A DNA stretch of 50,071 bases from the IMG/VR virus record IMGVR_UViG_3300001598_000010, positions 1 through 50,071 of that record. One strand, given 5' to 3'. The notes beneath the pieces were generated by a model. It was given only the letters and a program-made list of their open reading frames with translations. It was not told the origin of the DNA and ran no database searches. The position numbers were made by a program, and so were the translations under genes. Below, in pieces: positions 101-50,071 of this stretch (position 1 is the first letter of the stretch; the number at the start of each line of letters is the position of its first letter). This DNA is from a virus.

Positions 101-156
101 ATAATGGGTGCATTACAATAATACACCCAAAATCAAAATTAAGTAAGGAATTCTTT

Positions 157-5726: not shown

Positions 5727-6580
5727 TCGGAATTTGCGCTGTTATTCTGGGATGTCTTGGTCTGGCGGTCATTATAATTGCCCTCTGCCACCTTAACCCA
5801 ATTCTTTGAGTTCTCAAAGACCCAATCGAAAGTTGCTTTCCAACCGGTCTTGTTGTCACCGCGCAAGAACTTGGAAGATTCCATTGCGCTGAATATGCTT
5901 TTAAGAAGATTCCAATCCTGTTTCATTTCATCCACGAAACGGATTCGGATTTTCGCCTTTCGCGCCTGACTGATTTTGATGATGCGCGGGAACGATGGAC
6001 ACAATTCGTGATAAAGATTCACGATCTGAACATAATCAATTTCATCACTCTTTCCAGAAGCCGGTTCAACCGAACCGGAAACTTCTGATTTATCAGAAGT
6101 AATAGTATTTATATTTTCTTTTCTTTTCTTTTCTTTATTACTATTACTTTCGTATTCGCTTTGAATTACATTTGTATTACATTCGTATTCTTCACCATCG
6201 GTGTCTTGTATTTCATCGTTGCCGGAAGCATCTGGATGCCATCTTTGCATAATGCTTTCACGCCTTTTTTCACAGATTGCCTTGCGTTCATTCATCCTTT
6301 TATTGGCTGATTCTGACCAGAAGTTGACACCATCGTTCTTGAAAAGATTGTAATCCATAACAACCCTTTCAACCTTGGCAACATCCTGATGAAGCGCAAA
6401 CGCAATGACCTTAATCTGGTTCAAAGGCAACGAACCACCATCCTTGTACAGATCTTCAATCAAGCACCAATAAATGCCCAATCCCTCACATCCCAAGTCG
6501 AACAACACTTGTTGCAGCTTGGAATCTGATTGTGCATTGTAATCGTGTGGAAAGTAGTGGTCTTTCATTTCGTTGTCCAT
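5717..6580 (-). CDS. Replication initiator / replisome organiser (DUF4373/DnaD-like N-terminus)
   Basis: N-terminus YFPHDYNAQSDSKLQQVLFDLGCEGLGIYWCLIEDLY matches the Lin1244-type DUF4373 pattern. Start refined to the ATG at 6580 (the track start at 6589 is TTG). Confidence 0.6.
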   Translation of the reverse strand: MDNEMKDHYFPHDYNAQSDSKLQQVLFDLGCEGLGIYWCLIEDLYKDGGSLPLNQIKVIAFALHQDVAKVERVVMDYNLFKNDGVNFWSESANKRMNERKAICEKRRESIMQRWHPDASGNDEIQDTDGEEYECNTNVIQSEYESNSNKEKKRKENINTITSDKSEVSGSVEPASGKSDEIDYVQIVNLYHELCPSFPRIIKISQARKAKIRIRFVDEMKQDWNLLKSIFSAMESSKFLRGDNKTGWKATFDWVFENSKNWVKVAEGNYNDRQTKTSQNNSANSEWQ

Positions 6581-12312: not shown

Positions 12313-12704
12313 TTAAATTTCGAATGTTGATGATTCTTCTTTTTTGCGGCTGCGCACCCTGATGGTGTTTGTTGTTCTGGTTCTTGTTGTCCTTATCCGG
12401 ACAAATTGGTCAATCGAGTTGTCGAAGATGCTTGGAAGCAAGATTGCCAGAAGAACGAATGCGCCGATGCCGCGCTTCAATGGTGAAAGGTTGAATGATA
12501 TATGAAAGTGTGTGCAAAACCACCAAGCCGACAATTCATTTGCTTTGTTGATTTCCAACTTTTCATAAATGTTCCGGGTGTGGTTCTCAACAGTCCTTTC
12601 AGAAAGGCAAAGCCGGTCGGCAATCTCTTTCTTGGATGCGCCCCACGCAATCAGTTCGCTGATTTCGCTTCGCGCTTTGTGAGTTCGACACCGGCTTTCA
12701 TCAT
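12313..12704 (-). pseudogene. LuxR/GerE-type HTH protein with a C-terminal TM segment, apparently disrupted by a 1-nt frameshift near 12664-12668
   Basis: The ATG at 12704 overlaps the upstream stop (ATGA) and reads MMKAGVELTKREA, then stops. In the -1 frame the text continues EISELIAWGASKKEIADRLCLSERTVENHTRNIYEKLEINKANELSAWWF, followed by a TM helix. That frame has no upstream ATG/GTG/TTG. Confidence 0.5.
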
Positions 12705-12931
12705 TCCGCCCCCCAGACCGATAGAATGTTGTACTTATGGAACACTTGTTCGATTGCGGCGGCTTCTGTCACCTTTGGTTCTACATTACCATACAAGCGT
12801 TTTAGGAAGTTGGGTCTTGTAGTGATACCCAATGCAATCATCAGTTCTTCACGAACCGATTGCACATCTTTCTGCTTGACTTGATTCCACCCTTTGAGAA
12901 AGGAAAATTTTGGATTTACATCTTTTGCCAT
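12701..12931 (-). CDS. Hypothetical first gene of the early (minus-strand) operon
   Basis: 76 aa from the ATG at 12931 (MAKDVNPKFSFLKGW...). The longer track ORF to 13036 would run through the divergent promoter/operator region. Confidence 0.5.
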   Translation of the reverse strand: MAKDVNPKFSFLKGWNQVKQKDVQSVREELMIALGITTRPNFLKRLYGNVEPKVTEAAAIEQVFHKYNILSVWGAE

Positions 12932-12976: not shown

Positions 12977-13058
12977 TACCTTTGTAATCGTATTCGTTTC
13001 GTGTGCAAAGTAACGAAATAATTCACGAAACGCCAAACATTTTTCGTGTTATTTCGTG
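12977..13058. promoter_or_regulatory. Divergent immunity-switch region: TAnnTTTG-type box plus CACGAAA/TTTCGTG half-sites
   Basis: TACCTTTG at 12977-12984 (plus strand). TTTCGTG at 12997, 13042 and 13052. CACGAAA at 13024. The region lies between the divergent XRE repressor gene and the early operon. Confidence 0.5.
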
Positions 13059-13103
13059 ATATATTTCGCAGAATATTACAAGGAAAACTATAAGTTATTG
13101 AGT

Positions 13104-13466
13104 ATGAACGCAAAAGAAATTAAGGAACTTCGTGACAAACTTGGCATTTCGCAAGAAAGGCTTGCCGAAATATTGGGTGTATCATCACGAACCATCCAGA
13201 ATTGGGAAGCCGGTGGCACAATCCCGCAAACAAAGGAACTTGCGCTGCAATCCATCAGCTTGAATCCGGACATCAAGTTCTTTGGCGGCGGTCAATCAAA
13301 TGTCAACGGTGACAACATTGCCGGTGGAAACATCAAGGTTGAAACACCGAAATCACAAGACAAGTGGATTGAACTTCTGATGTCAAAAGAACTTTCCTTG
13401 CAGAAAGCGCAAGACCACATCACGGAACTTCTGGACATAATCAAATCAATGCAACGCAATGGATAA
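13104..13466 (+). CDS. XRE-family HTH transcriptional regulator (candidate prophage repressor)
   Basis: IKELRDKLGISQERLAEILGVSSRTIQNWEAG is a classic XRE HTH. Start refined to the ATG at 13104. It is divergent from the early operon and upstream of the integrase. Confidence 0.75.
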   Translation: MNAKEIKELRDKLGISQERLAEILGVSSRTIQNWEAGGTIPQTKELALQSISLNPDIKFFGGGQSNVNGDNIAGGNIKVETPKSQDKWIELLMSKELSLQKAQDHITELLDIIKSMQRNG

Positions 13467-13641
13467 AGTGGAAATCAATGTCAATGAGTATTACGGGAAC
13501 GCATCTTATTATTCCGTGATGCCGCAAGCTGTGTTTGATCTGTTAGAAGCCGCCTTTCTCAACGGGTTGACATCCGTTCCGGTGGACAAGGATGTCTTTG
13601 AACAGATGGAAGCCGATTATAAAAAGAAGATGAATCAATAA
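13459..13641 (+). CDS. Hypothetical small protein
   Basis: 60-aa ORF overlapping the repressor stop by 8 nt (translational coupling). Confidence 0.5.
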   Translation: MDKVEINVNEYYGNASYYSVMPQAVFDLLEAAFLNGLTSVPVDKDVFEQMEADYKKKMNQ

Positions 13642-13652
13642 GTCCTGGTTCT

Positions 13653-13934
13653 ATGAAGAAATCAATCAATGCCAAGACAATTGAAGTGCAACGCCGGTTC
13701 TTCGAAGCGTTGGACACATTGATTGCATTGGAACGCATCACCGGAATAAAAGGATTCTGCGTGAAATACGGATTGAACCGGGTGAAATATACAAGATTGA
13801 AAAACGATCTGGGGAAACCCATCGAAGAAATGTTCTATAAAAGCATTGATGTTGATGCGTTGGCGGACATCTGCGAACTTGGGGTTTCTCCGGAATGGTT
13901 GCTTCTTGGTCGCGGAAAGATGCTGATGAAGTAA
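13653..13934 (+). CDS. CI-repressor-like HTH DNA-binding protein
   Basis: 93 aa. The C-terminal GVSPEWLLLGRGKM resembles the phage CI repressor HTH-domain signature. Confidence 0.55.
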   Translation: MKKSINAKTIEVQRRFFEALDTLIALERITGIKGFCVKYGLNRVKYTRLKNDLGKPIEEMFYKSIDVDALADICELGVSPEWLLLGRGKMLMK

Positions 13935-13935
13935 G

Positions 13936-15213
13936 ATGAAGATTGACCGGACAACAAAATTCTATCTGCACAAGCGCAAGACGGGAGAAACACGCAACCT
14001 TACAATCCGGATGCGCATCACCTTGCGCGGACAACGACCTTTGGATTTTTCCACCGACTACCGCGTTGATCTGGAAGATTGGGATGCGCAACACCAGATG
14101 GTCTTGCCGACAAATCCGAATGCGGATGAAGCGAATTCCACAATCACCGAATGGCGTGCTATCCTGAAAGACATCTTCGCACGATATGAACTGATTGAAA
14201 AGCGCGTTCCGATGCCCGGCGAAGTCAAGGATCTGTTCAATGATACCATCGGAAGAAAAACCATCCTGAACGAAAGGTTTCCAGAACCGACAAAGGAATT
14301 CTTTGAAGTGTTCGACTTGTTTTGCCGGGATATGGGTGAACAAAACCAATGGACTGATTCAACCCACGAAAAGTTTTCTTCGCTTCGCGGACACATCCGG
14401 GAATTTGACCCATACATTTGTTTTGAAACCATCAATGAAAAGAAGATGGTCGAATATCTTGCCTATCTGAACCGGAAGCAATTGCGGAACACAACAATTG
14501 CCAAGAACCTTGGATTCTTCCGGTGGTTCTTGCGTTGGGCGGCTGATAACGGATATTACAACGGTGATGTCCACGAAAAATTCAAGCCGAAATTGAAAGG
14601 CACGAATGTGGAATCACACCAGATCATATATTGCACCCAAGAAGAACTTCGCAAATTGGAAGAACACCAATTCACGGCAAAGGAAGCTGCACTTGAACGG
14701 GTGCGGGATGTCTTTTGTTTCTGTTGCTTCACCGGCTTGCGATATTCCGATGTTGCCAAGTTGAAGCGTTCCGACATCAAGCAAGGCTTCATCAAGGTGA
14801 TGACAAGAAAGACCGATGACGGGTTGATGATTGAATTGAACCGGCATTCGCAAGCCATTCTGGATAAGTACCGGGAACAAAGGTTTCCATCCGATCTGGC
14901 GTTGCCTGTCATATCCAACGAGAAGATGAACCAACATTTGAAAGTTCTTGGTCAGGTGTGCGGTCTTGATGACCCAACAAGGGTGATATACTTCCAAGGC
15001 AAGAAGCGTTTTGAAGATGTCGTTCCGAAATGGTCTGTCCTGACCACACATTGCGCAAGAAGAACATTTGTTGTCACCGCGCTTCAATTGGGCATTCCGG
15101 CGGAAGTCATAATGAAGTGGACAGGACATTCAAGGTATGAAGCAATGAAGCCGTATGCCGCCATTGTTGATGAACTGAAAAAGAAGTCAATGTCAAAGTT
15201 TGATGAAATATGA
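13936..15213 (+). CDS. int: Tyrosine site-specific integrase
   Basis: 425 aa. An N-terminal arm-binding/SAM-like region. Catalytic-domain motifs GLRYSDV, HCARRTF (HxxR) and a C-terminal GHSRYEAMKPY. Confidence 0.9.
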   Translation: MKIDRTTKFYLHKRKTGETRNLTIRMRITLRGQRPLDFSTDYRVDLEDWDAQHQMVLPTNPNADEANSTITEWRAILKDIFARYELIEKRVPMPGEVKDLFNDTIGRKTILNERFPEPTKEFFEVFDLFCRDMGEQNQWTDSTHEKFSSLRGHIREFDPYICFETINEKKMVEYLAYLNRKQLRNTTIAKNLGFFRWFLRWAADNGYYNGDVHEKFKPKLKGTNVESHQIIYCTQEELRKLEEHQFTAKEAALERVRDVFCFCCFTGLRYSDVAKLKRSDIKQGFIKVMTRKTDDGLMIELNRHSQAILDKYREQRFPSDLALPVISNEKMNQHLKVLGQVCGLDDPTRVIYFQGKKRFEDVVPKWSVLTTHCARRTFVVTALQLGIPAEVIMKWTGHSRYEAMKPYAAIVDELKKKSMSKFDEI

Positions 15214-21476: not shown

Positions 21477-21511
21477 CAAAAATAAGCAAATGATGTATCA
21501 TTATGATACAT
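21477..21511 (-). promoter_or_regulatory. Candidate promoter box plus a 19-bp palindrome upstream of the DGR operon
   Basis: The minus strand reads TATTTTTG (21484-21477), matching TAnnTTTG, 24 nt before the ATG at 21453. An adjacent perfect palindrome ATGTATCAT-T-ATGATACAT lies at 21493-21511. Confidence 0.35.
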
Positions 21512-37095: not shown

Positions 37096-37938
37096 TTAAA
37101 CATAAATGATACCTGAAAGTGCTGACTTGATGGCATCGTTCACGATAGGCGCATTTGCTTCGTGAATAACACCAATCACCCAAGCATCAACGAAAAGGTT
37201 GGAATCGGATTCAACATCCAGATTCGTTCCGGCAACGCAAACTGCGTTCTGACGGGTGACATCGTTGAAAGACTTCTGATTTGATGCGGTCGCACCGGCT
37301 TCACCGGATGCCTTGACAACGATGATTTCATCATCAGCCGCAACATTGACGGAGAATGCGGTCGCAACGGTCACGATGTCGTATGCAGCACCATAAGCAA
37401 TGGCAACAATCTCTGTTCCCACGAACTTGGATGCAGCCTTGCCCGCAATGAAGTCACCGATGGCAAGTTTGTGACCCTTTTTGACTTTCAGGGATGTGCT
37501 TGTTGATGCGGTTGCCGTACCATAAGCAACGGCGGTGTGTTTTGATGATTCAACTGCTACACCCTCAATGCAAGCACCAAGCGCAATGGCGAAATCGAAA
37601 CCGGCGGCAAGGGTGAAAACATCCTTTGCGGAATTTGACTTGTCAATCGCGGTAATCTTGGCAACATTCACACCATCCGGGGTGATGTAGTCATTGACCT
37701 TGAAGTGTGAACCTTTCGCAACTTCAAGCGAAGTTCCGGAAGCGTATGCCGTAATGATCTGGGCGGTCTTGATGACCTCAAACAGACCATTCGCACCCTT
37801 GGCAAGCGGCGTTCCCTCAAACAAGGCATTGCCACCAAGGTTTGCGACTTTGACAGTTACACCACCGGGAATGTCGGCAACGCGGTGAAGAATGCACTTC
37901 ACAACGCGATTGTCGTTCTTTCTTTTGATAGTTAACAT
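37096..37938 (-). CDS. Head decoration-like protein (called by position)
   Basis: 280 aa, Ala/Gly/Val-rich, located between the scaffold and capsid genes as lambda gpD is. Confidence 0.45.
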   Translation of the reverse strand: MLTIKRKNDNRVVKCILHRVADIPGGVTVKVANLGGNALFEGTPLAKGANGLFEVIKTAQIITAYASGTSLEVAKGSHFKVNDYITPDGVNVAKITAIDKSNSAKDVFTLAAGFDFAIALGACIEGVAVESSKHTAVAYGTATASTSTSLKVKKGHKLAIGDFIAGKAASKFVGTEIVAIAYGAAYDIVTVATAFSVNVAADDEIIVVKASGEAGATASNQKSFNDVTRQNAVCVAGTNLDVESDSNLFVDAWVIGVIHEANAPIVNDAIKSALSGIIYV

Positions 37939-37964: not shown

Positions 37965-38684
37965 TTAAAGTGACTTCCCGGAAAACTTATCGGTTTCCGG
38001 TTTCTGGCTTGCGATAAAGTCTGCAACGCCCTTTGAAACACCTTGGTCGGTTTTCTGGGCGAACAATGGTGAACCACCACCGGCAAGTTCCCTATCCGCA
38101 AGATTCTGGTTGGCGGCTTCGATGTCTGTTGCCTTTTCGGTCAAGTATTCATTGAATGCTTCATCATCCTTGAACGCCATTCGGTTGAAGTCTTTCAATG
38201 TCTGTGCTTTGAAAGTTTCATCCTTGCAAGCGGCAAGTTTGTCGTTGAGCATTTGAAGCCTTGATTTGGCAAGTCCGTCTGATTCATACTTGGCAAGTTT
38301 TTCTTGAAGCGGTGCAAGATGCTTTTCCAGAAGTGCGCTTAACCTTGAATCATGGTCATCACCACCCTTTCCGCCATCACCACCGTCACCATTGCCGCTT
38401 CCACCATCACCGCCGGGTTCAGTTTTGGTCTTTTCGACAAAGTTGTACTTCTTACGCAAGTTGGTTTCATTGGACTTTACGCCATCGGAAACCTCTTTGT
38501 CAACATCAGCGCGATATTCCTTGGCGAACTCTGCCACTTGCGCATCTGTGAGTTTGCCCACCAATTCTTTCGCTTCATCCTCTGTTGTGCATTGTAGCGC
38601 AAGAACACGCGCCAATGCATTCAAACAATCCTTGCGCACGCCTGAAAATGATGCAATCAGTAATGCTAAAATTGTGTTTCTCAT
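37965..38684 (-). CDS. Scaffolding protein
   Basis: 239 aa from the ATG at 38684. Helical, charged composition with a Gly/Asp-rich linker (GGDGGSGNGDGGDGGKGGDD). It lies upstream of the capsid genes. Confidence 0.55.
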   Translation of the reverse strand: MRNTILALLIASFSGVRKDCLNALARVLALQCTTEDEAKELVGKLTDAQVAEFAKEYRADVDKEVSDGVKSNETNLRKKYNFVEKTKTEPGGDGGSGNGDGGDGGKGGDDHDSRLSALLEKHLAPLQEKLAKYESDGLAKSRLQMLNDKLAACKDETFKAQTLKDFNRMAFKDDEAFNEYLTEKATDIEAANQNLADRELAGGGSPLFAQKTDQGVSKGVADFIASQKPETDKFSGKSL

Positions 38685-38817
38685 TGTGATGTATTTATGA
38701 AGTTTGACAATTAAACGCCACAAATATACAAGTATTACAATGATACACCCTTGAATTTAGCAACTCACATCAAGAAAGTTATTAACATTGACCGAACCGG
38801 TATTTGTGAGATTTCAG

Positions 38818-38862
38818 CGAAATAATTCACGAAATATTTGTTTTTGTCACGAAAAACAAATA
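38818..38862. promoter_or_regulatory. Operator-like elements at the head of the plus-strand accessory island
   Basis: The 17-mer CGAAATAATTCACGAAA (38818-38834) is identical to 13014-13030 in the immunity switch. It abuts an inverted repeat with 11-bp arms TATTTGTTTTT / AAAAACAAATA (38835-38862), whose loop and right arm contain another CACGAAA. Confidence 0.5.
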
Positions 38863-38914
38863 ATATTGCGGTGTATTATTGTGATACCCGTTTAATTTTA
38901 TAATTTCTATTTCT

Positions 38915-39346
38915 ATGGCAAAAGATTCACAAACATCAGTCAGCCTTGCGCCGATGACCAAGGATGAAGAAATTTCCATCATCAAGAAGCTGATGGAACA
39001 CGACACCTATTTCCGGGATGAATTCCGGTATCTGGGTGAAAAGATCTGTGACAACATCCGGTTTGACCGCCCGTTTCTTTTCGACACCGGCTTTGCAAAC
39101 GCAACAACGATTCAGGACTTGAAAGATGATGCGGAAAAGGCGTGGAACGAAGTCAACAACCAGAAGAACATCATTGATGCTTTGCTTGATTACATATTGC
39201 TTTCGTACAAGGAAGATGCAATTTCCAAGGCATACGAACTTCTTGGCGAAAAGGAAGTCATCACGCACAAACTTGCTTTCGGTCACGATCTGACGGATGA
39301 TGACAAACGATTTCTTCTTGTTTCACTTCAAGGCAACAAGGAATGA
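38915..39346 (+). CDS. Hypothetical protein (island gene 1)
   Basis: 143-aa ORF with coding-like composition. Confidence 0.6.
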   Translation: MAKDSQTSVSLAPMTKDEEISIIKKLMEHDTYFRDEFRYLGEKICDNIRFDRPFLFDTGFANATTIQDLKDDAEKAWNEVNNQKNIIDALLDYILLSYKEDAISKAYELLGEKEVITHKLAFGHDLTDDDKRFLLVSLQGNKE

Positions 39347-39741
39347 TGGACAGGAACAGCCGAATAATCGTTGAAGCAATCAAGGATGCGAAACGCATCA
39401 CGATTACCATCAACCCGGATGACAAGCAAGAATGTGTCATCAATCCGAATCCGAACAAGAAGCTGCATCACGACATTGCGCTTGCCGTTCAATCGTTCCT
39501 TATCCAACAGGAATCCGTTGCCAAGACGGAAAGGAAAAGCAAATTCAAAGCCGTTTTCCCAATGAAATACGGTGATATGGCAACAAGATACTATGACCGG
39601 AAGCAAGATGCCATCCGGGTCGCAAAAGAACATCTGAAAGCGTGCGAAACGCCAGATCAAGCCTATGCGGAAGTTTACGAAGTGGAACTTCCAACCCATA
39701 AGTCAAAACTAATCCTTGAATTGTCAAATGCCGAAATGTAA
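39343..39741 (+). CDS. Hypothetical protein (island gene 2)
   Basis: 132-aa ORF with an ATGA overlap with gene 1. Confidence 0.6.
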   Translation: MMDRNSRIIVEAIKDAKRITITINPDDKQECVINPNPNKKLHHDIALAVQSFLIQQESVAKTERKSKFKAVFPMKYGDMATRYYDRKQDAIRVAKEHLKACETPDQAYAEVYEVELPTHKSKLILELSNAEM

Positions 39742-39895
39742 ATCAAAGCCGGTTGCCAAGGCGCATCCGGCGCATTGTTGTATGAATTGCAAGTGGGCAA
39801 CAAATGTTTCTGGTGAAGAAGTGGAATGCCCAAAGGTCATTGGTGGCGAATCATACCTTGGATATGTATGCCGGTTGTTCCGGTTCAAATTTTAG
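39728..39895 (+). CDS. Cys-rich mini-protein (55 aa), below the ORF-track cutoff
   Basis: Hand translation gives MPKCKSKPVAKAHPAHCCMNCKWATNVSGEEVECPKVIGGESYLGYVCRLFRFKF. It contains 7 Cys and ends 9 nt before the radical SAM gene. Confidence 0.4.
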   Translation: MPKCKSKPVAKAHPAHCCMNCKWATNVSGEEVECPKVIGGESYLGYVCRLFRFKF

Positions 39896-39904
39896 CGCAC
39901 GATT

Positions 39905-40810
39905 ATGGCAAACATTGGTCTTGTTGATGTTGACGGTCATAACTTTCCGAACTTCGCCTTGATGAAGATTTCCGCTTTCCACAAGGCAATGGGTGACCGT
40001 GTTGAATGGGCATCACCATTGTTCGGTGCTTATGATCTGGTCTATAAATCCAAAATCTTCACTTTCTCACCGGATGACACAACGCCTTGGAATTGCCCGG
40101 TCATCAAAGGCGGCACGGGTTATGACATCAAAAGCCATCTTCCAGAAGAAATCGAATCATCCAAGAAGATGGATTATTCCATTTATCCGCAATATCCGTT
40201 TTCGGTTCAGTTCCTTTCGCGTGGATGCATCCGCCATTGTCCATTTTGCCTTGTCCGGGAAAAAGAAGGACTTATTCACCCCGTTGACCCGGTTGAACTG
40301 AACCCCAACGGGCAATGGATTGAAGTTCTGGACAACAATTTCTTCGCCAATCCGGAATGGCGCACGGCGGTCAAATACCTGATGAACACCAAGCAACCAA
40401 TCAACTTTCACGGCATTGATGTCCGGATTCTTGATGAAGAACAGGCGTGGTGGTTGAACCGCATCAAGATGCGCGGTGGAATCCATATCGCGTGGGATCT
40501 GCCGAATGTGGACTTGACAGATCGGTTGAAGAATATGGTCAAGTACATCAAGCCTTGGAAGATTGTCTGTTACATTCTGGTTGGATTCAATTCAACCATC
40601 GAACAGGACTTGAAACGGATTTACACTTGCCGTGACCTTGGCATTTCCGCTTGGGTGATGCCGTTCCGGGATTACGAAAACAAGCGTGAACCGACAATGT
40701 ATGAACGGGATCTGCAAAGGTGGGCAAACCGCCCGCAAATCCTAAACAAATGCAACTTTGAGGATTACGAACCCCGCAAGGGTTTCAAATGTGGTAACTA
40801 TCTTAAATAA
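39905..40810 (+). CDS. Radical SAM superfamily enzyme of unknown function
   Basis: 301 aa. The CxxxCxxC cluster SRGCIRHCPFC is encoded at 40226-40249 and is preceded by an N-terminal domain of about 100 aa. Confidence 0.8.
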   Translation: MANIGLVDVDGHNFPNFALMKISAFHKAMGDRVEWASPLFGAYDLVYKSKIFTFSPDDTTPWNCPVIKGGTGYDIKSHLPEEIESSKKMDYSIYPQYPFSVQFLSRGCIRHCPFCLVREKEGLIHPVDPVELNPNGQWIEVLDNNFFANPEWRTAVKYLMNTKQPINFHGIDVRILDEEQAWWLNRIKMRGGIHIAWDLPNVDLTDRLKNMVKYIKPWKIVCYILVGFNSTIEQDLKRIYTCRDLGISAWVMPFRDYENKREPTMYERDLQRWANRPQILNKCNFEDYEPRKGFKCGNYLK

Positions 40811-40817
40811 TAACATT

Positions 40818-41093
40818 ATGAATAAAAAGACATTGGAACAAGGTATCGCGGACATCAAAGAATTGTTCGATGATGCGCTGAAAAATGGCAAGTGGAATGA
40901 TTACAAGTCCGGTAATCAATCTTTTTTCAACGAAAAGGACAACGGTTTCTTCATTGACAAGCGCGTTGTCGAAAGGGATGTGGTGATTCAACGCCTTGTT
41001 GATTATTTCAACCAGAACGAAATTGTTGGACATTGCGTTCAATTGGATTCAATCACGCTTCTGTTCACGACATTCAAAATCATATCCCTATGA
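40818..41093 (+). CDS. Hypothetical protein (island)
   Basis: 91 aa from the ATG at 40818. Confidence 0.5.
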   Translation: MNKKTLEQGIADIKELFDDALKNGKWNDYKSGNQSFFNEKDNGFFIDKRVVERDVVIQRLVDYFNQNEIVGHCVQLDSITLLFTTFKIISL

Positions 41094-41278
41094 CAGCAAA
41101 AGAATTCTTTGACCTTGTGTGCGAAATGCGTGAAGCGCAAATCGCATATCTGAACAAGGGAATCCGGACACGGGGTCAACTTGCAGAAAGCAAGCGTTTG
41201 GAACACCTTGTTGATGCCGAAATCGCACGGGTGAAAAAGCTGACGGAGAACCAACCGACTTTATTTTCAAAACAATAA
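41090..41278 (+). CDS. Hypothetical small helical protein (island)
   Basis: 62 aa from the ATG at 41090 (ATGA overlap with the previous stop). Sequence begins MTAKEFFDLVCEMREAQIAYL... Confidence 0.5.
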   Translation: MTAKEFFDLVCEMREAQIAYLNKGIRTRGQLAESKRLEHLVDAEIARVKKLTENQPTLFSKQ

Positions 41279-41281
41279 TCT

Positions 41282-41895
41282 ATGGACAACAAAATCATCA
41301 TTGGGCGAATGCCCCATTATTTCACCCTCTGGCGGGTGACAAGCACACCGGAAATCACGACCGACAACGGCATCATCGGTGCTTGGATTCATTATGAATT
41401 CATCAAGAACTTTTCAAAGGATGAAGAAAAGGTTCGTTTGTGTTATCCGGATGCCGAAATCGTGGATGATCTGAAACCGGTGGACAAGTTCATCACCCGC
41501 AAATGTGATGCAAGGATAACCGATGATTGCTTCCATTCCGGCAAGTTCATCGGCGAAAGCATTCTTGATTGTTCCGATATGGATTACATCCGCTTTGTCT
41601 TCCCAAGCTGTCACCAATCCAGAAATCGCACGCCATCCGGACACTCAACGAACACGGATATTCAGTCATCGGTGACAACATCCTTTCCGGTGATGATCTG
41701 GAAAGCATCCGGAAGTACCAGGAATTCAAAGAAACGCTTGATGCCGGGCAACCGTTCAACATCTTCTTTGGCACGAACCTGAACCAAGATGGCGAATATG
41801 TTTACAATGGATTCGTGTTTGAATTCAAGGACTATGACCAACACTATAAGGTTGATTGTTACAACTTCGCATCCTGCCGCTTAACCAGAATGTGA
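41282..41895 (+). pseudogene. Hypothetical gene apparently split by a 1-nt frameshift near 41595-41610
   Basis: The frame from 41282 looks coding up to ...DMDYIRFVFP, then becomes low-complexity. The -1 frame (track ORF 41569-41895) looks coding from about KLSPIQKSHAIRTLNEHGYSV but has only a TTG start. The switch point coincides with the run CTTCCCAAG. Confidence 0.45.
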
Positions 41896-42030
41896 AGTTC
41901 ATCAAGGGTCGTGCGTTCCGCGTGACCAAGTACATCAGGACAACCGCCGGTGCAATCATCGAAAGGATGGATGCCATCCAGACCATTGGAAAGAACCCTT
42001 TTAACGGACAATTTTAATACCTTTGCAAAG

Positions 42031-42600
42031 ATGAAGAAAGACATCACAATCCCTGAACTTGCCGAAATGTTTGAATTGTCGGAAGAATTCCTTACCAACT
42101 TGCGTGACCGCATCGTTGACAAGGAAAACTTTGTCAAAGCTGTCCGGATGTTCAATGATGGCGAACTTCCGTACACCGTTGCGACCGGAACGGGTGAAAT
42201 CAACATTGCCGAATTGCGGCACGATCTGGCGGTGAAGAAATTGGCGTTCCGAAACAACGAACAAGAAGAACTGAAACAGGCATTTGAACGCCACAAGGTG
42301 ATAATGGCATATTACGCCACTTGCAAAACCATCCAGAAACGCTTCAAAAGCGGCGTTATTCACCGCGCTTACTTCAAGGATGGACATCTTGTTGCCTTGC
42401 ACAATCAAGCGGGCAATACGGGCGGTTTCTATTGCGCCAAGAACGAAGTGATGGTGTTCCATTGGGAACAAGTGAAACAGTTCCTGTTCAACATCCGCAC
42501 GCAAGACAAGGCGTTCTTCCGGGCAATCAAGAAAGCCGCGTATGCAGAAGAACCGGCAATCTTCGATTTCTCTGACAGAACCATTGTAAAGCATTCATAA
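42031..42600 (+). CDS. Hypothetical protein (island)
   Basis: 189 aa from the ATG at 42031 (MKKDITIPELAEMF...). Confidence 0.55.
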   Translation: MKKDITIPELAEMFELSEEFLTNLRDRIVDKENFVKAVRMFNDGELPYTVATGTGEINIAELRHDLAVKKLAFRNNEQEELKQAFERHKVIMAYYATCKTIQKRFKSGVIHRAYFKDGHLVALHNQAGNTGGFYCAKNEVMVFHWEQVKQFLFNIRTQDKAFFRAIKKAAYAEEPAIFDFSDRTIVKHS

Positions 42601-42601
42601 A

Positions 42602-42802
42602 ATGGCACGAACCAAGAAGATAATCCATCTTGAAATCAATGGCGAAAACCACTATTTCCCAACCATTGCCGCCATCTTCCGGGAATTCACACCGGATGAT
42701 CTGGGCATTGGCAAGGAAGCATTGTGGAATTATGGAATCAAGGAAAACCACCCATTCCAGAACAAGCATTGCATCATCCGGATGGGTGTCATCAACAAAT
42801 AA
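42602..42802 (+). CDS. Hypothetical small protein (island)
   Basis: 66-aa ORF starting 1 nt after the previous stop. Confidence 0.5.
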   Translation: MARTKKIIHLEINGENHYFPTIAAIFREFTPDDLGIGKEALWNYGIKENHPFQNKHCIIRMGVINK

Positions 42803-42807
42803 AATTT

Positions 42808-43068
42808 ATGGCACAACTAAACCCCAAGAAATTATCTGGTGAAGATCTGTTCACCTATTACACGCAAGACCACAACGATGCCGATTACCGTTCAATTGTC
42901 CGGCTTTTGCCGTTGGCGTGTGGTGATATGGAAAAAGCGTTTCGGATTCTTGAACAAACCGTCAAAAATGGCAAAACGCTTTCGATCTGTTATCCGCCAA
43001 AGGAAAGCATCCCTGATGGTGCTGAAATCATTGGGTCTGTTCCTGATGGCGTGATGTATTCTATTTAA
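42808..43068 (+). CDS. Hypothetical small protein (last island gene)
   Basis: 86 aa from the ATG at 42808. Its stop lies 4 nt from the convergent MuF-like gene stop. Confidence 0.5.
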   Translation: MAQLNPKKLSGEDLFTYYTQDHNDADYRSIVRLLPLACGDMEKAFRILEQTVKNGKTLSICYPPKESIPDGAEIIGSVPDGVMYSI

Positions 43069-43072
43069 CCCG

Positions 43073-45613
43073 TTACTTTGCGGGTTTCAATGTCCGGATA
43101 TATGCAACCATTTCGTTGTATATGTCCGGCATATACATTTTGAAGATGGGATTCCCCAAGAATGCGTTTTCAAAACAATGGGCAAGATATTCGTGTTCTT
43201 TGAACCCCGGCGTGCGGAAATATGAATCAGAATGTCCATCACCGTATGATGGAACAAGTGATTTGATGGTGTCACGGGTTGAACAGACCATTTCAATGAT
43301 GTCGCGCTTACTGTAACCCCATCTTCGCAGACACACATCGTTATCCCAACGCCACGCAGCCGAACTTAATCTTTCCAATTTTTTATCAATGGCTTGAACC
43401 AAAGACCGCGCCTGATAAGTCTGGACAACATATTTCCCTTTTGAATAATCATAGGATCTGGCTTTGTAGGTCATTTTTGTCTTTGCTTTCAAAGCCTTGC
43501 TTTGGCGCGACCGCATTTCAAGGAATTCTTTGTCATCACCGTAAGGGATTCTTCGTTGGTCACCAACGGCGTGACCGAATTCGTGATATACGACAGATTT
43601 CTTTTTCCATTTTGAATCCTTTGCCCTCTTTTCGTTTGCAAGAACAACTTTATTTCCACCATCTTCATACGAACCACTATCATCGTTCTTGATTATCAAT
43701 TTGACCGGCTTCTTTGGGTCAAGAAGCGCAAAGAATTCCGGACTGAATTCATAATCTTCACCAAGAAGATAATCCGCGCCGATTTGAAGTTCTGGCGGAC
43801 AAGTCACCCTGACCGCATTGGCGTTTGCTTCGACATTCGCAATCTCCAATTCGATTTCCTTGGTGATAACTTCCGCATTGTGCAGCGCGGTTCTTTGTGC
43901 CTTGGTCAGCGAAACAAGTTTGGAAACATCGTTGTCTTTGCCATACTTCGCAATTGCCGCATTCGCCTTATCAATGGCATTACGATAATTGTCTTTGGCT
44001 TTCTGGATGCGTTCACGCAACTTGGCAACATTCAAAGAACCGTGTTCCATCGAATTGACAACTGACTTGTAATTTGGGAACTGTTCTTTCGCTTCATTTG
44101 CCATATATTCGTGATTCTGCCGGATGGCGGCATCAAAAGAACCAAGCCATTCACCGGCATCTTTCGCAACGGATTCAAATTCTTGAATGCCCCGTTCCGC
44201 CATAAACTTGAAATCGGCAATCTTCGATTTAAGTGCTTCATCAACCTTGGTATATTCGGCACGCAATTCACTTTCACGCCACCATTCGTTCTTCTGAACG
44301 GCTTCTTTCAAGTGTTGGGCATACAGATCTATTCCGGGAACTTCATTGAAATGACAAGCTGATTCCCATTCCCACAACATTGGGTAAAAATCCATCTTGA
44401 AGCGTTCCCAAAGCACTTTTGCGGATTGGTCAAGTTCTTCGTATGGAACACGGGATTCAATTGCCGGTTCAATCCCTGGTCTTATGGCGGTCATCAACGG
44501 CTTCAATCCCTTTGACAGATCCCCGGAAACAAAGTTGTCACGCACGAAATATGGCGTATTCTTCCAATACTTCTGGGAATCAAGGTTGTCTTTCACCCAA
44601 TCTTTGAACCCATCCGGAACATCGGTGACAGCATCCTTGGATTGGAAGTGTTTCGCCTGTGTTCCGCGCAATGCGGCTTTCAAGTCCGCCAATTCATTCT
44701 GGTTGAATGTTTCATCATCCATCAGGACAGGCGTGACATAGCACATACATTGAGGATGCCAACCCTTGAACTTGAATGTTTTCGGATATTTTCCGGCAAG
44801 GCGGTCACACAACGGACAATCGCACTTGATATTCTTGCTTCGATGGATTTCTATGCCCACAACGAAGTCAAGCTGTTGCCATCGTTGCCAATCGGCTTCA
44901 CGATATGCCATATTGATTTCCGATCTGGTCAAACGCATTGCGTTCTTGTACGATGACCGGTAAACACCTTGTCCGGGATGGAATGCTTTTGCAGCCTTGG
45001 AAAGAACCAGATTGCCGTGCTTGTCGCGGACACGCCTGAACAAGCGGTTTGGGTCTTTCAGACTTTGCCGGACATCCCTTGAAAGTTGGTCGGCACTCTT
45101 TCCCTCACCAAGACCGGCATCAAGTGCCAATTCAAGTTGGTCTTTGAACTGATCTGTGTATTTCCACACGCGCTTTGACAGATCCATTCCGTCAACCTTG
45201 CGTTCCTGAAAGGCTTTCAACCCGTCAAGATTGCGGTCTTGCATCGAAGCAAGCCTTTTGGATGACATCTTGGTCGTATCAAGGATGGATGCAAGGAAAG
45301 CATCATTCTTCTGGCAAGCAAACAGCCATTCTTTGCGTGAACCCTTGCTGATGACGGTTGTCACATTGGCGGTCAATTCGCTGATGGTCTTTGCCACCAT
45401 ACGCTTTGCGCCCGGATAGTCATCGAAAGAAAACACCTTTCCCGCATCCGGGTTGACATTTGCCACGCCGAACACGATGTCCGCTTCCGCACGCCTGAAA
45501 AGGGTTTCAACCATCTTGGCGTATTGTTCCGTATGTGAATAATGCGCGGTGTTCCATCCCTTGACGGAAAACGCCACGACCTTGCGCTTGGATGACTGTT
45601 GCTTCTTTGCCAT
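43073..45613 (-). CDS. MuF/SPP1 gp7-like head morphogenesis protein with a long C-terminal extension carrying an HExxH (zincin-like) motif
   Basis: 846 aa. MuF-like core with a Cys cluster (CDCPLCD...HPQCMC). HEFGH is encoded at 43571-43585 (residues 677-681). It lies directly downstream of the portal gene. Confidence 0.7.
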   Translation of the reverse strand: MAKKQQSSKRKVVAFSVKGWNTAHYSHTEQYAKMVETLFRRAEADIVFGVANVNPDAGKVFSFDDYPGAKRMVAKTISELTANVTTVISKGSRKEWLFACQKNDAFLASILDTTKMSSKRLASMQDRNLDGLKAFQERKVDGMDLSKRVWKYTDQFKDQLELALDAGLGEGKSADQLSRDVRQSLKDPNRLFRRVRDKHGNLVLSKAAKAFHPGQGVYRSSYKNAMRLTRSEINMAYREADWQRWQQLDFVVGIEIHRSKNIKCDCPLCDRLAGKYPKTFKFKGWHPQCMCYVTPVLMDDETFNQNELADLKAALRGTQAKHFQSKDAVTDVPDGFKDWVKDNLDSQKYWKNTPYFVRDNFVSGDLSKGLKPLMTAIRPGIEPAIESRVPYEELDQSAKVLWERFKMDFYPMLWEWESACHFNEVPGIDLYAQHLKEAVQKNEWWRESELRAEYTKVDEALKSKIADFKFMAERGIQEFESVAKDAGEWLGSFDAAIRQNHEYMANEAKEQFPNYKSVVNSMEHGSLNVAKLRERIQKAKDNYRNAIDKANAAIAKYGKDNDVSKLVSLTKAQRTALHNAEVITKEIELEIANVEANANAVRVTCPPELQIGADYLLGEDYEFSPEFFALLDPKKPVKLIIKNDDSGSYEDGGNKVVLANEKRAKDSKWKKKSVVYHEFGHAVGDQRRIPYGDDKEFLEMRSRQSKALKAKTKMTYKARSYDYSKGKYVVQTYQARSLVQAIDKKLERLSSAAWRWDNDVCLRRWGYSKRDIIEMVCSTRDTIKSLVPSYGDGHSDSYFRTPGFKEHEYLAHCFENAFLGNPIFKMYMPDIYNEMVAYIRTLKPAK

Positions 45614-45619
45614 ACGAAT

Positions 45620-45886
45620 TTACTTTGTTGTGCGCATTATGACATATTGTCCCTTTTCAATCTCCGAAAAAGTGATTGGATCTGTGTGGACTTTGATGAT
45701 ACCGATTGAATCGGCAATCCACACAATCCATTCATCCGAATAATGATGCGTTTGCGGCATTTGCAAGGCGGCATTATAAACGATGATGCCGGTCAAGATG
45801 TCACCGAAATCACGCTTCTTGCACTTATACGAATCCACAATGTGAACATTGTTCTTCGTTGCGGTGTACTGAATATCAATCATCAC
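45620..45886 (-). CDS. Hypothetical protein between the portal and MuF-like genes
   Basis: 88-aa ORF overlapping the portal stop by 4 nt. Confidence 0.5.
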   Translation of the reverse strand: MMIDIQYTATKNNVHIVDSYKCKKRDFGDILTGIIVYNAALQMPQTHHYSDEWIVWIADSIGIIKVHTDPITFSEIEKGQYVIMRTTK

Positions 45887-47337
45887 GCATCAAGTGTTGG
45901 TTCGCCAAGTTCGAATGTGTTGGCGGCACTCTGTTCTTCTTTCAACTTCTGCATCGTAAGTTCCGGGTTACGGGAAAGACCTGCCCTTTCAACGGATTCT
46001 TCCTGTGACACAACAGGCAAGTTGCCATTGGCGGTCATCCAGAAGTCCAGATCATCTTTTTCCGATGTGATGATGTAAGGTGTGATGGATGGCTTGATTT
46101 CCATCATCTGTGCATCTTTCTCCAACTTGGTGTTGAACTTGCCGACATACGCAAGAATGATGTTGGAACGCCTTTGAAGATATTCATCGAAGATTTCGCG
46201 CTTGTCCTGAACTTTCAAGTGGGCATCCATAAACAACAGCTTCAAGGCAATTCCGGAAAGGTTCAGACCCTTGACGGAATCAAAGCTGATGTCCGGTGTC
46301 TGGGTGATGGTGTAAATCATCCGCAAAAGCGTTTCGATTTCCAACTTGACGGATTCCGGTGCGTTCTGCCAAGATACATATTGCATCGTTGCGCCATCTT
46401 CACCCTCAATGACACTTCCGGATTCGCCTTTCTTCGACCATCCGTTGATCTGACCGGTGACAAAGATTTTCGGTGATGCGTGATAATCGTTGGTATCGGC
46501 GAAGTTGGACAGAAGCGTTTCAAGACGGTCAATCAAGCGGTCAACATCTTCCGTTTCGAAGTGCGGCTGATATGCGTAAACAACCGGAATCTTGCCGATG
46601 GCAACGGGTTTCGGATAACCGTCAACCAGAACATAACCGGCGGATGTGTTCTGCCAAAGATAATGGAACTTGTCCGTGTATGTTTCGAAGTATTCTGTTG
46701 TCACATTGTCCGTTCCGGTCTTGCTGAATGATCTGGAAAAAGCAAGCATATCACCGGAATCATCGAAGTACGGATAAAGTTCATCACCGAACATCGGCGA
46801 AACGATCTGGCACTTCAACTTGAACTTCGATGCGAACCCGTAAGTGGTGTGTTGATGTTCAACCGGATACCATATTTCGGCAACTTCCTTGTAGCTGAAC
46901 AACGCCCTTGCGACCTTACGGTTCAAGGATGTTGACTTGACATCATACAGAATGCGGTCAAAGGCTTTCTTGACCGCCTGTTGGTTCTCATTCTCCGGCG
47001 TTGCTTCGTAATCAACCGGATTGCCGAAAGTGAACGAAACGGCGCGGTTGATGATAAGTTTTTGCAACGCAAGACTGACCCTTGCAACCTTTTCGGTCTT
47101 GTAGGATTTGGATTCACCGCCCGTGTCAATGACTTTCTGGGCGGAATCTGATGCTTGGTCATCAGTAACGATGACACGCTTGTCAGGTCGTTTGATGACA
47201 TCGTTGATGTCGTGCAACTTGGGGTCAAGAACCTTGTTGGCGTGTGCGACATCCGGCTGCGGAATGTATCTTCTTGATTTCAGTTCCGCGATCTGTTCAT
47301 TGGCGGTTGCCAACTGAAAAATGTCTGTTATAGGCAT
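45883..47337 (-). CDS. Portal protein (SPP1 gp6-like)
   Basis: 484 aa. The size and the position after the large terminase are typical of portal proteins. Confidence 0.8.
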   Translation of the reverse strand: MPITDIFQLATANEQIAELKSRRYIPQPDVAHANKVLDPKLHDINDVIKRPDKRVIVTDDQASDSAQKVIDTGGESKSYKTEKVARVSLALQKLIINRAVSFTFGNPVDYEATPENENQQAVKKAFDRILYDVKSTSLNRKVARALFSYKEVAEIWYPVEHQHTTYGFASKFKLKCQIVSPMFGDELYPYFDDSGDMLAFSRSFSKTGTDNVTTEYFETYTDKFHYLWQNTSAGYVLVDGYPKPVAIGKIPVVYAYQPHFETEDVDRLIDRLETLLSNFADTNDYHASPKIFVTGQINGWSKKGESGSVIEGEDGATMQYVSWQNAPESVKLEIETLLRMIYTITQTPDISFDSVKGLNLSGIALKLLFMDAHLKVQDKREIFDEYLQRRSNIILAYVGKFNTKLEKDAQMMEIKPSITPYIITSEKDDLDFWMTANGNLPVVSQEESVERAGLSRNPELTMQKLKEEQSAANTFELGEPTLDA

Positions 47338-49911: not shown

Positions 49912-49915
49912 AGCA

Positions 49916-50068
49916 TCAGAAGATTATGTTGAACAGAAGAACGGCAATTGCCGCAACGATGATTCCGACAACAATGCCGGGAATCCGTGACCCTTGATGA
50001 ACGCCACGAACCCTTTTAGGATGTTGATAATCTTTTCCATCGTACTGAAAATTTTGTGTTTGCAACAC
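49916..50068 (-). CDS. Possible small membrane protein (50 aa, GTG start) at the circular junction; the frame is ambiguous
   Basis: This frame ends in the TM helix IPGIVVGIIVAAIAVLLFNIIF, 4 nt before the ParB-like ATG. A competing ATG-started 38-aa frame (49924-50040, MEKIINILKGFVAFIKG...) covers the same DNA. Confidence 0.3.
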   Translation of the reverse strand: MLQTQNFQYDGKDYQHPKRVRGVHQGSRIPGIVVGIIVAAIAVLLFNIIF

Positions 50069-50071
50069 AAA
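49973..50071. repeat. Right copy of the 99-bp terminal direct repeat
   Basis: Identical to bases 1-99. Confidence 0.9.

Follow-up and report, generated by a model that had tools for sequence, protein, structure and literature searches.

An Opposite-Strand Accessory Operon at a Fixed Position between the MuF and Scaffold Genes of Temperate Bacteroidales Siphophages

Introduction

The viral record IMGVR_UViG_3300001598_000010, analysed over its whole length of 50,071 nucleotides (the window), belongs to a temperate siphophage of Bacteroidales in which ten plus-strand genes, g1 to g10, are located inside the head morphogenesis module of the minus strand, between the gene of the MuF-like minor head protein and that of the scaffold. 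We report here that this block is a fixed-position opposite-strand accessory operon of the phage lineage and not a one-off insertion. It is formed by three layers: g10, which goes with the C-terminal tail of MuF; g9 and g8, which are conserved; and g1 to g7, a swappable cargo. On balance we think it probable that this lineage operon, with its g10 inhibitor, its g8-g9 pair, and its cargo, would be repressed in the lysogen, switched on early, and switched off late.

Results

Conservation of the Block in the Lineage

The relatives used for comparison were 80 IMG/VR loci that share 56-66% identity with the window in the N-terminal domain of MuF; the MuF stop and the scaffold gene could both be located in 62 of them. 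A first-pass annotation of the window, made from its letters, had taken uninterrupted head genes as the norm and the block as an unusual island of this phage. Neither view is true for this lineage, and the island is not a recent one. An opposite-strand block at the same site is the rule, with a distance of 1.5-6.8 kb between MuF and scaffold in 60 of the 62 relatives, and the two genes follow each other without interruption only in L053 (467 nt) and L072 (95 nt). The strand opposite MuF carries 438 of the 519 open reading frames (ORFs) found in these gaps. Published annotations of Porphyromonas phage005b, Bacteroides phage Versailles, and Riemerella RAP44 show this arrangement too, and the block of the window is typical for the lineage, not exceptional.

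Another claim of that annotation, that the block is an accessory and variable cassette with its own control region, was supported by the comparison, in which close relatives were seen to have swapped parts of the block and two relatives to lack it. The slot holds 147 gene families over 63 loci, and the cargo part in other relatives includes PAPS-reductase-like enzymes (18 loci), ParB_N-phosphoribosyltransferase (PRTase) fusions, SLOG/DprA-like proteins, Ant, HigA-like regulators, and lipoproteins. With respect to the possibility that these are conserved core genes, the answer is divided: g8 and g9 are conserved in the lineage, and no homologue of g1 to g7 was found at this site in the 80 relatives. 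In several relatives the ParB_N-PRTase fusion was seen beside a SLOG/DprA-like protein (L009:14463-15401 and L012:11304-11648, and also L100:8501-9780); the two recur together, as is typical of nucleotide-centred conflict systems.

The MuF Tail and Its Neighbour

In the window the portal gene (45883-47337) is followed by an 88-aa ORF and then by MuF, which gave PHROG head-morphogenesis matches down to E=1e-131. The N-terminal part of MuF is conserved and matches the PHROG of Bxa, while the C-terminal domain, approximately residues 600-846 (nt 43076-43816, or 43073-43816 including the stop side), is variable. About seven C-terminal domain clusters were found on this one N-terminal family, and each tail type has its own first neighbour: C6, C4, g10, C14, or C66 together with an ADP-ribosylglycohydrolase. 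The ADP-ribosyltransferase-type tail is paired with a 106-aa protein and the ADP-ribosylglycohydrolase, the arrangement of which Bxa, Bsi, and BAH are the experimental example (PMC11699363).

The g10 family is present in 8 of the 12 loci with a homologous tail and in 0 of the 61 without it (Fisher p=3.7e-8); in the four tail-bearing loci that do not have it, the tails are only 25-27% identical and have other neighbours. The homologues are encoded on the MuF strand in 8 of the 9 IMG/VR relatives having one, and are convergent in L066 and in the window. The same tail was also found on a Mu-type MuF (PF04233) of an unrelated phage, adjoined by a convergent 82-aa distant homologue of g10. In L222 and L223, whose g9 is identical to that of the window, the tail and its neighbour are both replaced, by a 799-aa MuF and a DUF7675 protein (L222:6478-8877 and 6207-6452), and from the sequences the two appear to have been exchanged as a unit. 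The repressor identical to that of the window is encoded on the L222 contig (also in L094) and, in the sample of L223, on another contig. The tail of the 799-aa MuF of L222 and L223 has a GSCSS...H motif, which suggests a Cys-His enzyme.

The tail of the window carries an HE[FY]GH motif that is invariant in 10 of 11 aligned tails, the eleventh (L081) ending before it, and may be an undescribed metallopeptidase-type effector domain. It also has an EYLAHxFENAF motif and several other invariant blocks, and in L081 and L100 the tail is split off as a separate ORF. MuF toxins with adjacent immunity ORFs have been described in temperate phages, and ~20% of them are metallopeptidases (Jamet et al. 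2017, PMC5576092); in Bacteroides stercoris, the neighbouring proteins Bsi and BAH neutralise a Bxa-type MuF toxin of the same N-terminal family (PMC11699363). Considering that the covariation of tail and neighbour follows the logic of the MuF polymorphic toxins, we predict that g10 inhibits, or confers immunity to, the HExxH-bearing C-terminal domain as its cognate partner, and this domain would then be the toxic part of the pair.

The Conserved Pair g8-g9

Homologues of g8 are present in 59 related loci and those of g9 in 62, always on the opposite strand and near the MuF end. The g9 protein is 100% identical to its L089 copy despite a synonymous divergence (dS) of 0.31, and it is also found in Bacteroides phage Versailles. 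The g8 family is small, with 249 homologue clusters and no Pfam domain. The AlphaFold2 (AF2) model of g8 (pLDDT 88) combines a three-helix bundle at the N-terminus with a helix of 38 residues and a sheet of four strands, and the fold search of this model against PDB and BFVD gave nothing below E=0.07. A similarity of ~50 residues to uracil-DNA glycosylase inhibitor and helix-turn-helix (HTH) regulators was weak and unreliable and was set aside. The relatives without g8-g9 have a 76-aa protein and a Bro-N/KilAC protein in the same slots. These replacements hint at a regulatory role of the pair, and g9 and g8 are probably regulatory or DNA-associated. The possibility that g8 or g9 is the regulator that binds the palindrome described below was rejected, since L046, L073, and L074 keep the palindrome without g8 and g9 and have C7 and Bro-N/KilAC there.

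The Control Region and a Proposed Mode of Regulation

The promoters of the block and of the scaffold gene diverge from the intergenic region detailed in Table 1. The Bacteroidetes promoter consensus is formed by -33 and -7 elements, and a promoter of this kind is predicted upstream of g1, with the 17-mer CGAAATAATTCACGAAA and a second TCACGAAA flanking or overlapping its -33 element and spacer. The first-pass annotation had noticed that an exact 17-mer is common to the block region and the immunity switch. We confirmed this and found in the immunity switch an additional inverted copy with two mismatches; in total there are 3 matches in the window versus 0.48 expected. The immunity-switch 17-mer fills the spacer of the leftward early -33/-7 promoter, and it is also present in the immunity switch of L084 and L086, where the flanks have diverged. 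The block-region copy is kept in four further phages that encode the identical repressor. In five phages with this repressor, positions 38817-38914 are near invariant and the 65 nt of 38752-38816 have diverged, with a 10-nt indel. In IMG/VR the 17-mer was found as a single copy per contig, a count that says nothing on the block copies.

The other motif is a 23-bp palindrome, GGGTGTAT-N7-ATACACCC, from which an exact 16-mer is present in three copies in the window: 112-127 at the first late operon, 38734-38749 (GGTGTATCATTGTAAT) at the scaffold gene, and 38870-38885 (GGTGTATTATTGTGAT) at the block. A degenerate copy with a -7 box is located at ~21.5 kb (about 21485-21510). At the first late operon of most relatives the palindrome is directly upstream of the -7 box TAnnTTTG and stands where the -33 element would be, at a distance of ~5 kb upstream of MuF (near position 5000 in L007-L077). 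Essentially all relatives have a scaffold promoter built in this way. The block strand shows another order. In 36 of the 62 relatives a -33 TT(T)G is followed after 19 nt by a -7 TAnnTTTG, with the palindrome 1-3 nt further on, over the predicted block transcription start; this order was never seen on the scaffold strand. A late-type block promoter, with the palindrome upstream of the -7 box, was rejected after the comparison of relatives, to which the layout with an operator over the start fits. A second inverted repeat, TTTGCATTGCAAnnGCA (TGTGTTGCAAACACA in the window, ~75-95), accompanies the palindrome promoters; in relatives it directly follows the -7 box at the first late operon and recurs between scaffold and block (e.g., L011:4660-4690 and L047:15990-16020).

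The palindrome looks like the binding site of a late regulator. A candidate late regulator is the 130-aa GerE/LuxR-type protein encoded at 12313-12705 on the minus strand, where it follows a 76-aa cro-like gene in the leftward early operon. From the positions of these motifs we infer the following sequence of events. The block would be transcribed rightwards from the standard -33/-7 promoter in the 230-nt divergent region. In the lysogen the TCACGAAA and 17-mer sites, which the immunity switch has as well, would keep this promoter silent. It would fire soon after induction or infection, and the inhibitor and the cargo would be made before MuF. Late in the cycle, the factor binding the palindrome would turn on the late operons and shut the block off, a single protein acting as activator at the late promoters, where it would replace the -33 element, and as repressor at the block, where it would cover the start. 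Control of the block by the repressor is favoured because the 17-mer is common with the immunity switch and because 38817-38914 is near invariant among five phages with the identical repressor.

The Cargo and the Radical SAM Enzyme

The genes g1 to g7 are confined to a small sub-lineage (L089, L097, L222, L223, and L226), within which exchanges were also observed: in L222, g3 and the radical SAM gene g4 are replaced by genes of 203 and 135 aa, and in L223 a 124-aa gene takes the place of g3. With its cysteines, g3 is possibly a small zinc-binding protein. Homologues of g6 are found in the early region of relatives, and beside the radical SAM gene in L105 and L108. Compared with the intact 245-aa gene of L089, g7 is frameshifted by the loss of a single nucleotide at each of two points, within a T run near 41599 and near 41873; both deletions are also present in the independent assembly L097, and the gene is intact (245 aa) in L222, L223, and L226 as well. 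Judging from these deletions, g7 is decaying in the window phage.

The product of g4 matches phrog_9298 (E=2.6e-124) and has >5,500 homologues in Bacteroidales phages and prophages; it is 62% identical over its full length to gp14 of Bacteroides phage BKO1-TP3. The CxxxCxxC motif (C108, C112, and C115) is invariant, and the match to Pfam PF04055 was sub-threshold only. In the AF2 model (pLDDT 88) a flavodoxin-like N-terminal domain is followed by the radical SAM core, and the model matches radical SAM enzymes, the best Foldseek hits being MtaB/MiaB (E=2e-7 to 1e-5, query TM-score (TMq) 0.5-0.58, target TM-score (TMt) ~0.4, 11-14% identity). The protein ends in helices at residue 301, and the MtaB/MiaB targets have 440-450 aa. 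PDB sequence and profile searches with g4 gave nothing. The structure searches that the first-pass annotation had proposed for the block proteins were informative in part, with an MtaB/MiaB-like result for g4 and no fold match for g8.

In BKO1-TP3 and LoVEphage the radical SAM gene is found among methyltransferase, PAPS reductase, and replication genes, and no conserved partner gene was found in these two phages. The 80 closest IMG/VR radical SAM loci are on the main strand, together with DNA methyltransferase, pyrophosphatase, and replication genes, and never near MuF or the scaffold. A radical reaction directed to nucleic acid is no more than a reasonable guess, and a nucleic-acid-modifying or counter-defence function seems the most likely.

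Gene Content and Composition of the Block

The ten plus-strand genes between scaffold and MuF described in the first-pass annotation were borne out by the ORF listing, which shows an unbroken series; the count of ten was obtained after refinement of the start codons against the gene calls of close relatives. The gap of 4 nt between the stop codons of g10 (43066-43068) and MuF (43073-43075, reverse strand) was also as described. The radical SAM protein, as had been stated, is the sole one with a recognisable motif, and Pfam, NCBIfam, and PADLOC gave no significant match for the other block proteins. The features are collected in Table 1.

Table 1: Features of the block, its control region, and its flanking genes in the window.
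Feature	Position	Strand	Description
Palindrome, head of first late operon (ParB, TerS, TerL, portal, MuF)	111..133	-	Followed by -7 box TATTTTTG
Immunity-switch 17-mer copies	13014..13068	13014-13030 plus; 13052-13068 minus, with 2 mismatches	Between the divergent cro-like/early genes and the repressor gene
Scaffold-like gene	37965..38684	-	239 aa from ATG 38684; phrog_5824 E=2.9e-40; 238-239 aa called in close relatives
Divergent control region	38685..38914		230 nt between scaffold gene and g1
Scaffold (late) promoter	38721..38751	-	Palindrome 38729-38751 directly upstream of -7 box TATATTTG (38721-38728)
Operator-like repeats	38818..38854	+	17-mer CGAAATAATTCACGAAA 38818-38834; second TCACGAAA 38847-38854
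Predicted block promoter	38837..38868	+	-33 TTTG 38837-38840, 20-nt spacer, -7 TAATATTG 38861-38868
Palindrome copy over predicted block transcription start	38869..38891	+	Left arm exact, right arm degenerate
g1	38915..39346	+	143 aa, acidic, soluble, no hydrophobic segment; weak phrog_15742 match; dN/dS 0.23; cargo
g2	39343..39741	+	132 aa; dN/dS 0.14; cargo
g3	39728..39895	+	55 aa, six cysteines; cargo
g4	39905..40810	+	301-aa radical SAM enzyme; cargo
g5	40818..41093	+	91 aa; dN/dS 0.16; cargo
g6	41090..41278	+	62 aa; phrog_15937 E=9.3e-15; cargo
g7	41282..42017	+	Pseudogene; 245 aa when intact; cargo
g8	42031..42600	+	189 aa; lineage-conserved
g9	42602..42802	+	66 aa; phrog_10608; lineage-conserved
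g10	42808..43068	+	86 aa; predicted cognate inhibitor/immunity protein for the MuF C-terminal domain
Hairpin AACCCG/CGGGTT	43067..43086	Spans both stop codons	-11.7 kcal/mol, z=-1.6, not significant
MuF-like minor head protein	43073..45613	-	846 aa; phrog_35295, phrog_7625, phrog_16625

The scaffold-like gene is the first of the second late operon and forms the left border of the block. The ratio of nonsynonymous to synonymous substitution rates (dN/dS) against L089 (87% identical) was 0.00-0.46 for g1-g6 and g8-g10, which are therefore genuine genes under constraint. The AT skew of the window is positive in two stretches only, 13-15 kb and 39-43 kb, which is what real switches of the coding strand would give. 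A foreign base composition of the block was not seen (GC 0.453-0.455, in a window range of 0.41-0.50), no membrane or secreted protein was detected among its products, and none of them matched a structural family in PHROGs. The sigma-70 promoter and terminator scans of the block region were uninformative and did not pick up the hairpin at its junction with MuF, which is at best a weak bidirectional terminator. DNA searches against GenBank phages with the block and with the region of 30-50 kb gave a short radical SAM match or nothing.

Genome Setting

The two ends of the window are an identical direct repeat of 99 bp (1-99 and 49973-50071), from which it follows that the window is a circular assembly of the complete genome, 49,972 bp long. 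The early and replication genes run on the minus strand from 12.1 kb down to 0.16 kb and include those for SbcC-like, RecT, replication initiator, DnaC-like, Ant, DNA methyltransferase, exonuclease, single-stranded DNA-binding (SSB), and Holliday junction resolvase proteins. The late genes, also on the minus strand, extend from 49.9 kb down to 15.2 kb in the order ParB-like, TerS, TerL, portal, the 846-aa MuF-like protein, scaffold, head-decoration-like protein, major capsid, and tail genes. Apart from the block, the plus strand carries the XRE-type repressor (13104-13466, 120 aa), small ORFs, and the integrase (13936-15213), in agreement with the earlier description of it as the strand of the lysogeny genes; the plus-strand ORF at 12502-12822 is a mere shadow of the minus-strand GerE-type gene.

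The nearest described phages are Porphyromonas phage005a/b (53% identity in the N-terminal half of MuF), Bacteroides phage Versailles, and the Riemerella RAP44 group. Related prophages are spread across Bacteroidales, and the host could not be narrowed below this order.

Some other features of the genome and its relatives were observed. Between scaffold and capsid there is a 280-aa Ala/Gly/Val-rich protein (37096-37938) matched by phrog_20501 in two stretches, which looks like an internally duplicated head-decoration or head-fibre protein. In L090, L091, and L093 (3535-4122), which encode the identical repressor, an additional gene of 195 aa separates the 60-aa ORF adjoining the repressor from the 93-aa gene. 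This site (13466-13653 in the window) is another small slot of variable content, located in the lysogeny arm. L089 (11695-12356) has ~530 bp extra, with genes of 139 and 80 aa, between the promoter of the first late operon and the ParB-like gene; at this site (49912-50071 and 1-156) the window has a possible short ORF only.

Discussion

Alternative Explanations

The first-pass annotation had leaned towards expression of the block from the prophage, and the predicted promoter anatomy would rather point to the lytic programme and the repressor. It is nevertheless conceivable, and in our opinion rather unlikely, that the block is a moron, expressed from the prophage constitutively or with the repressor as activator to the benefit of the lysogen, be it by immunity to the MuF toxins of sibling phages or by lysogenic conversion through the radical SAM enzyme. 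The block shares its strand with the repressor and integrase genes and has a canonical -33/-7 promoter that needs no activator; the 17-mer is ~80 nt upstream of g1, in an orientation and at a distance like those of the copy at the repressor gene, and could be an activating site of the lambda OR2 kind. In Porphyromonas phage005b the equivalent block holds an integrase, an XRE-type regulator, and an antirepressor, and it has been argued that an immunity protein is useful to lysogens (PMC5576092). However, the second TCACGAAA is inside the promoter spacer, a repressing position, and the palindrome of the late promoters covers the start site. The GC content is not atypical, the block has no membrane or secreted protein, its g8 and g9 are lineage-conserved and not optional, and the radical SAM gene is normally located in lytic DNA-metabolism modules. 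Regarding the features by which morons are recognised, the flanking genes are adjacent in 2 of the 62 relatives and the other 60 have the block; the candidate -33/-7 promoter is conserved in relatives, and no convincing terminator was found. The same palindrome, with its 16-mer exact at the block and at two late promoters, could also mean that the block encodes accessory proteins of morphogenesis, expressed late and under common control with the head and tail operons. The conservation of g8 and g9 across the lineage would agree with this, as would the need of g10 to coexist with MuF. We regard it as very unlikely, given that the block palindrome follows the -7 box of a complete promoter and is not in place of the -33 element, that two relatives, and several others that lack g8 and g9, can do without these genes in building the same head module, that the block proteins are absent from the PHROGs structural families, and that the cargo is singleton and swappable. 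Variable prophage hotspots often house defence genes, and the domains found at the same site in relatives (ParB_N with PRTase, SLOG, HigA-like HTH) are of the conflict type, which would be consistent with a prophage-encoded anti-phage defence system that shields the lysogen. Defence was among the functions that the first-pass annotation had listed; PADLOC recognised no system, with two sub-threshold matches only (E ~0.002-0.003) and nothing significant for any block protein. Nuclease, ATPase, or sensor domains were not found in the block proteins, the fold of g4 is not viperin-like, and a defence role of the block is highly improbable.

Several points weigh against the lineage operon with repression in the lysogen and early expression that we prefer. 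The timing of block expression is drawn from motif positions only, and the 17-mer, whose centre is near -50, might just as well serve activation. Relatives with unknown repressors also have a CGAAA-like element close to the -33 box, and this element is perhaps not repressor-specific. In the window itself, the -7 box TAATATTG contains one mismatch, the block palindrome is degenerate in its right arm, and the terminator scan found no convincing terminator between the convergent g10 and MuF. As for the proteins, the MuF tail had no match in Pfam, NCBIfam, or PDB sequences and, apart from split fragments, occurred on MuF proteins only; with its L099 homologue, g10 reaches only 14 bits; and a tail that is an injected effector, with g10 as its dedicated inhibitor or chaperone, fits equally well, the polyvalent-protein idea being a frame for such injected effectors (PMC5512222). 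PDB sequence and profile searches gave no family or fold match for g8 and g9. Unlike MiaB, MtaB, and RimO, g4 has ~300 aa and no TRAM domain, and it does not have the three auxiliary-cluster cysteines, with only a near-invariant C64 before the radical SAM motif and the invariant C222 and C296 instead; without the TRAM domain and the N-terminal cluster cysteines, g4 is therefore not a member of the methylthiotransferase family.

Extending the preferred reading, one may picture a lineage-wide early operon that a single palindrome-binding regulator shuts while turning on the split late operons, in a hotspot for counter-defence genes, with g4 as a TRAM-less MiaB-like enzyme that would modify phage DNA or host tRNA and g8-g9 as a new regulatory module. 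We consider this fuller picture unlikely.

Significance

Temperate Bacteroidales siphophages are widespread, and one of their MuF-fused toxins, Bxa, is known to affect gut colonisation. If the proposal is true, the gene adjoining a MuF tail would predict the cognate inhibitor on either strand, which would aid the annotation of many MuF effectors, and the fixed variable slot would be a place to seek new anti-defence or nucleic-acid-modifying genes, such as the uncharacterised radical SAM family. The layout of palindrome and promoters would then offer a testable model of early-to-late control in Bacteroidota phages, about which, to our knowledge, very little is known.

Comparison with Known Systems

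In fold, g4 is closest to MiaB, MtaB, and RimO, with which it has in common the N-terminal flavodoxin-like domain and the CxxxCxxC core. The members of phrog_9298 in BKO1-TP3 (gp14), LoVEphage, and Clostridium phage phiCT453B belong to the same uncharacterised family; elsewhere this gene is in the early DNA-metabolism region of the main strand, whereas in the window it is cargo of a block in the head module.

With regard to regulation, the p4 protein of phi29 is an early-to-late switch at divergent promoters, and the accessory operon of lambda PL is controlled by CI. The block resembles the former in its divergent promoter pair with one motif, which replaces the -33/-35 element at the late promoter and covers the start of the other, and the latter in that the repeats of the immunity switch are also present at a second, distant operon. 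Both are resemblances of layout, seen in the sequence, and no homology to phi29 p4 or lambda CI is shown. We know of no description of p4-like logic in Bacteroidota phages.

The immI/sieA region of P22, located between head and tail genes, and the morons of lambda and HK97 are accessory regions at fixed sites. Like them, the block has variable, presumably non-essential genes with a predicted promoter of their own at a constant site between morphogenesis genes and is absent in some relatives. It differs in that it is present in nearly every relative, with the conserved core g8-g9, and in its typical composition, the lack of a clear terminator, and the predicted operators of the lytic programme.

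The MuF toxin-immunity modules share with the window a MuF gene placed after the portal, a variable tail, and a small neighbouring ORF that covaries with it, and metallopeptidases are a reported class of these toxins. Here, in contrast, the candidate immunity gene is convergent and the last of a ten-gene opposite-strand operon, and the tail, a putative toxin domain, fits no described toxin family; the likeness explains one gene, g10, and not the whole block. Taking both comparisons together, the closest known kinds are the MuF toxin-immunity modules, for g10, and the fixed-site accessory regions such as P22 immI.

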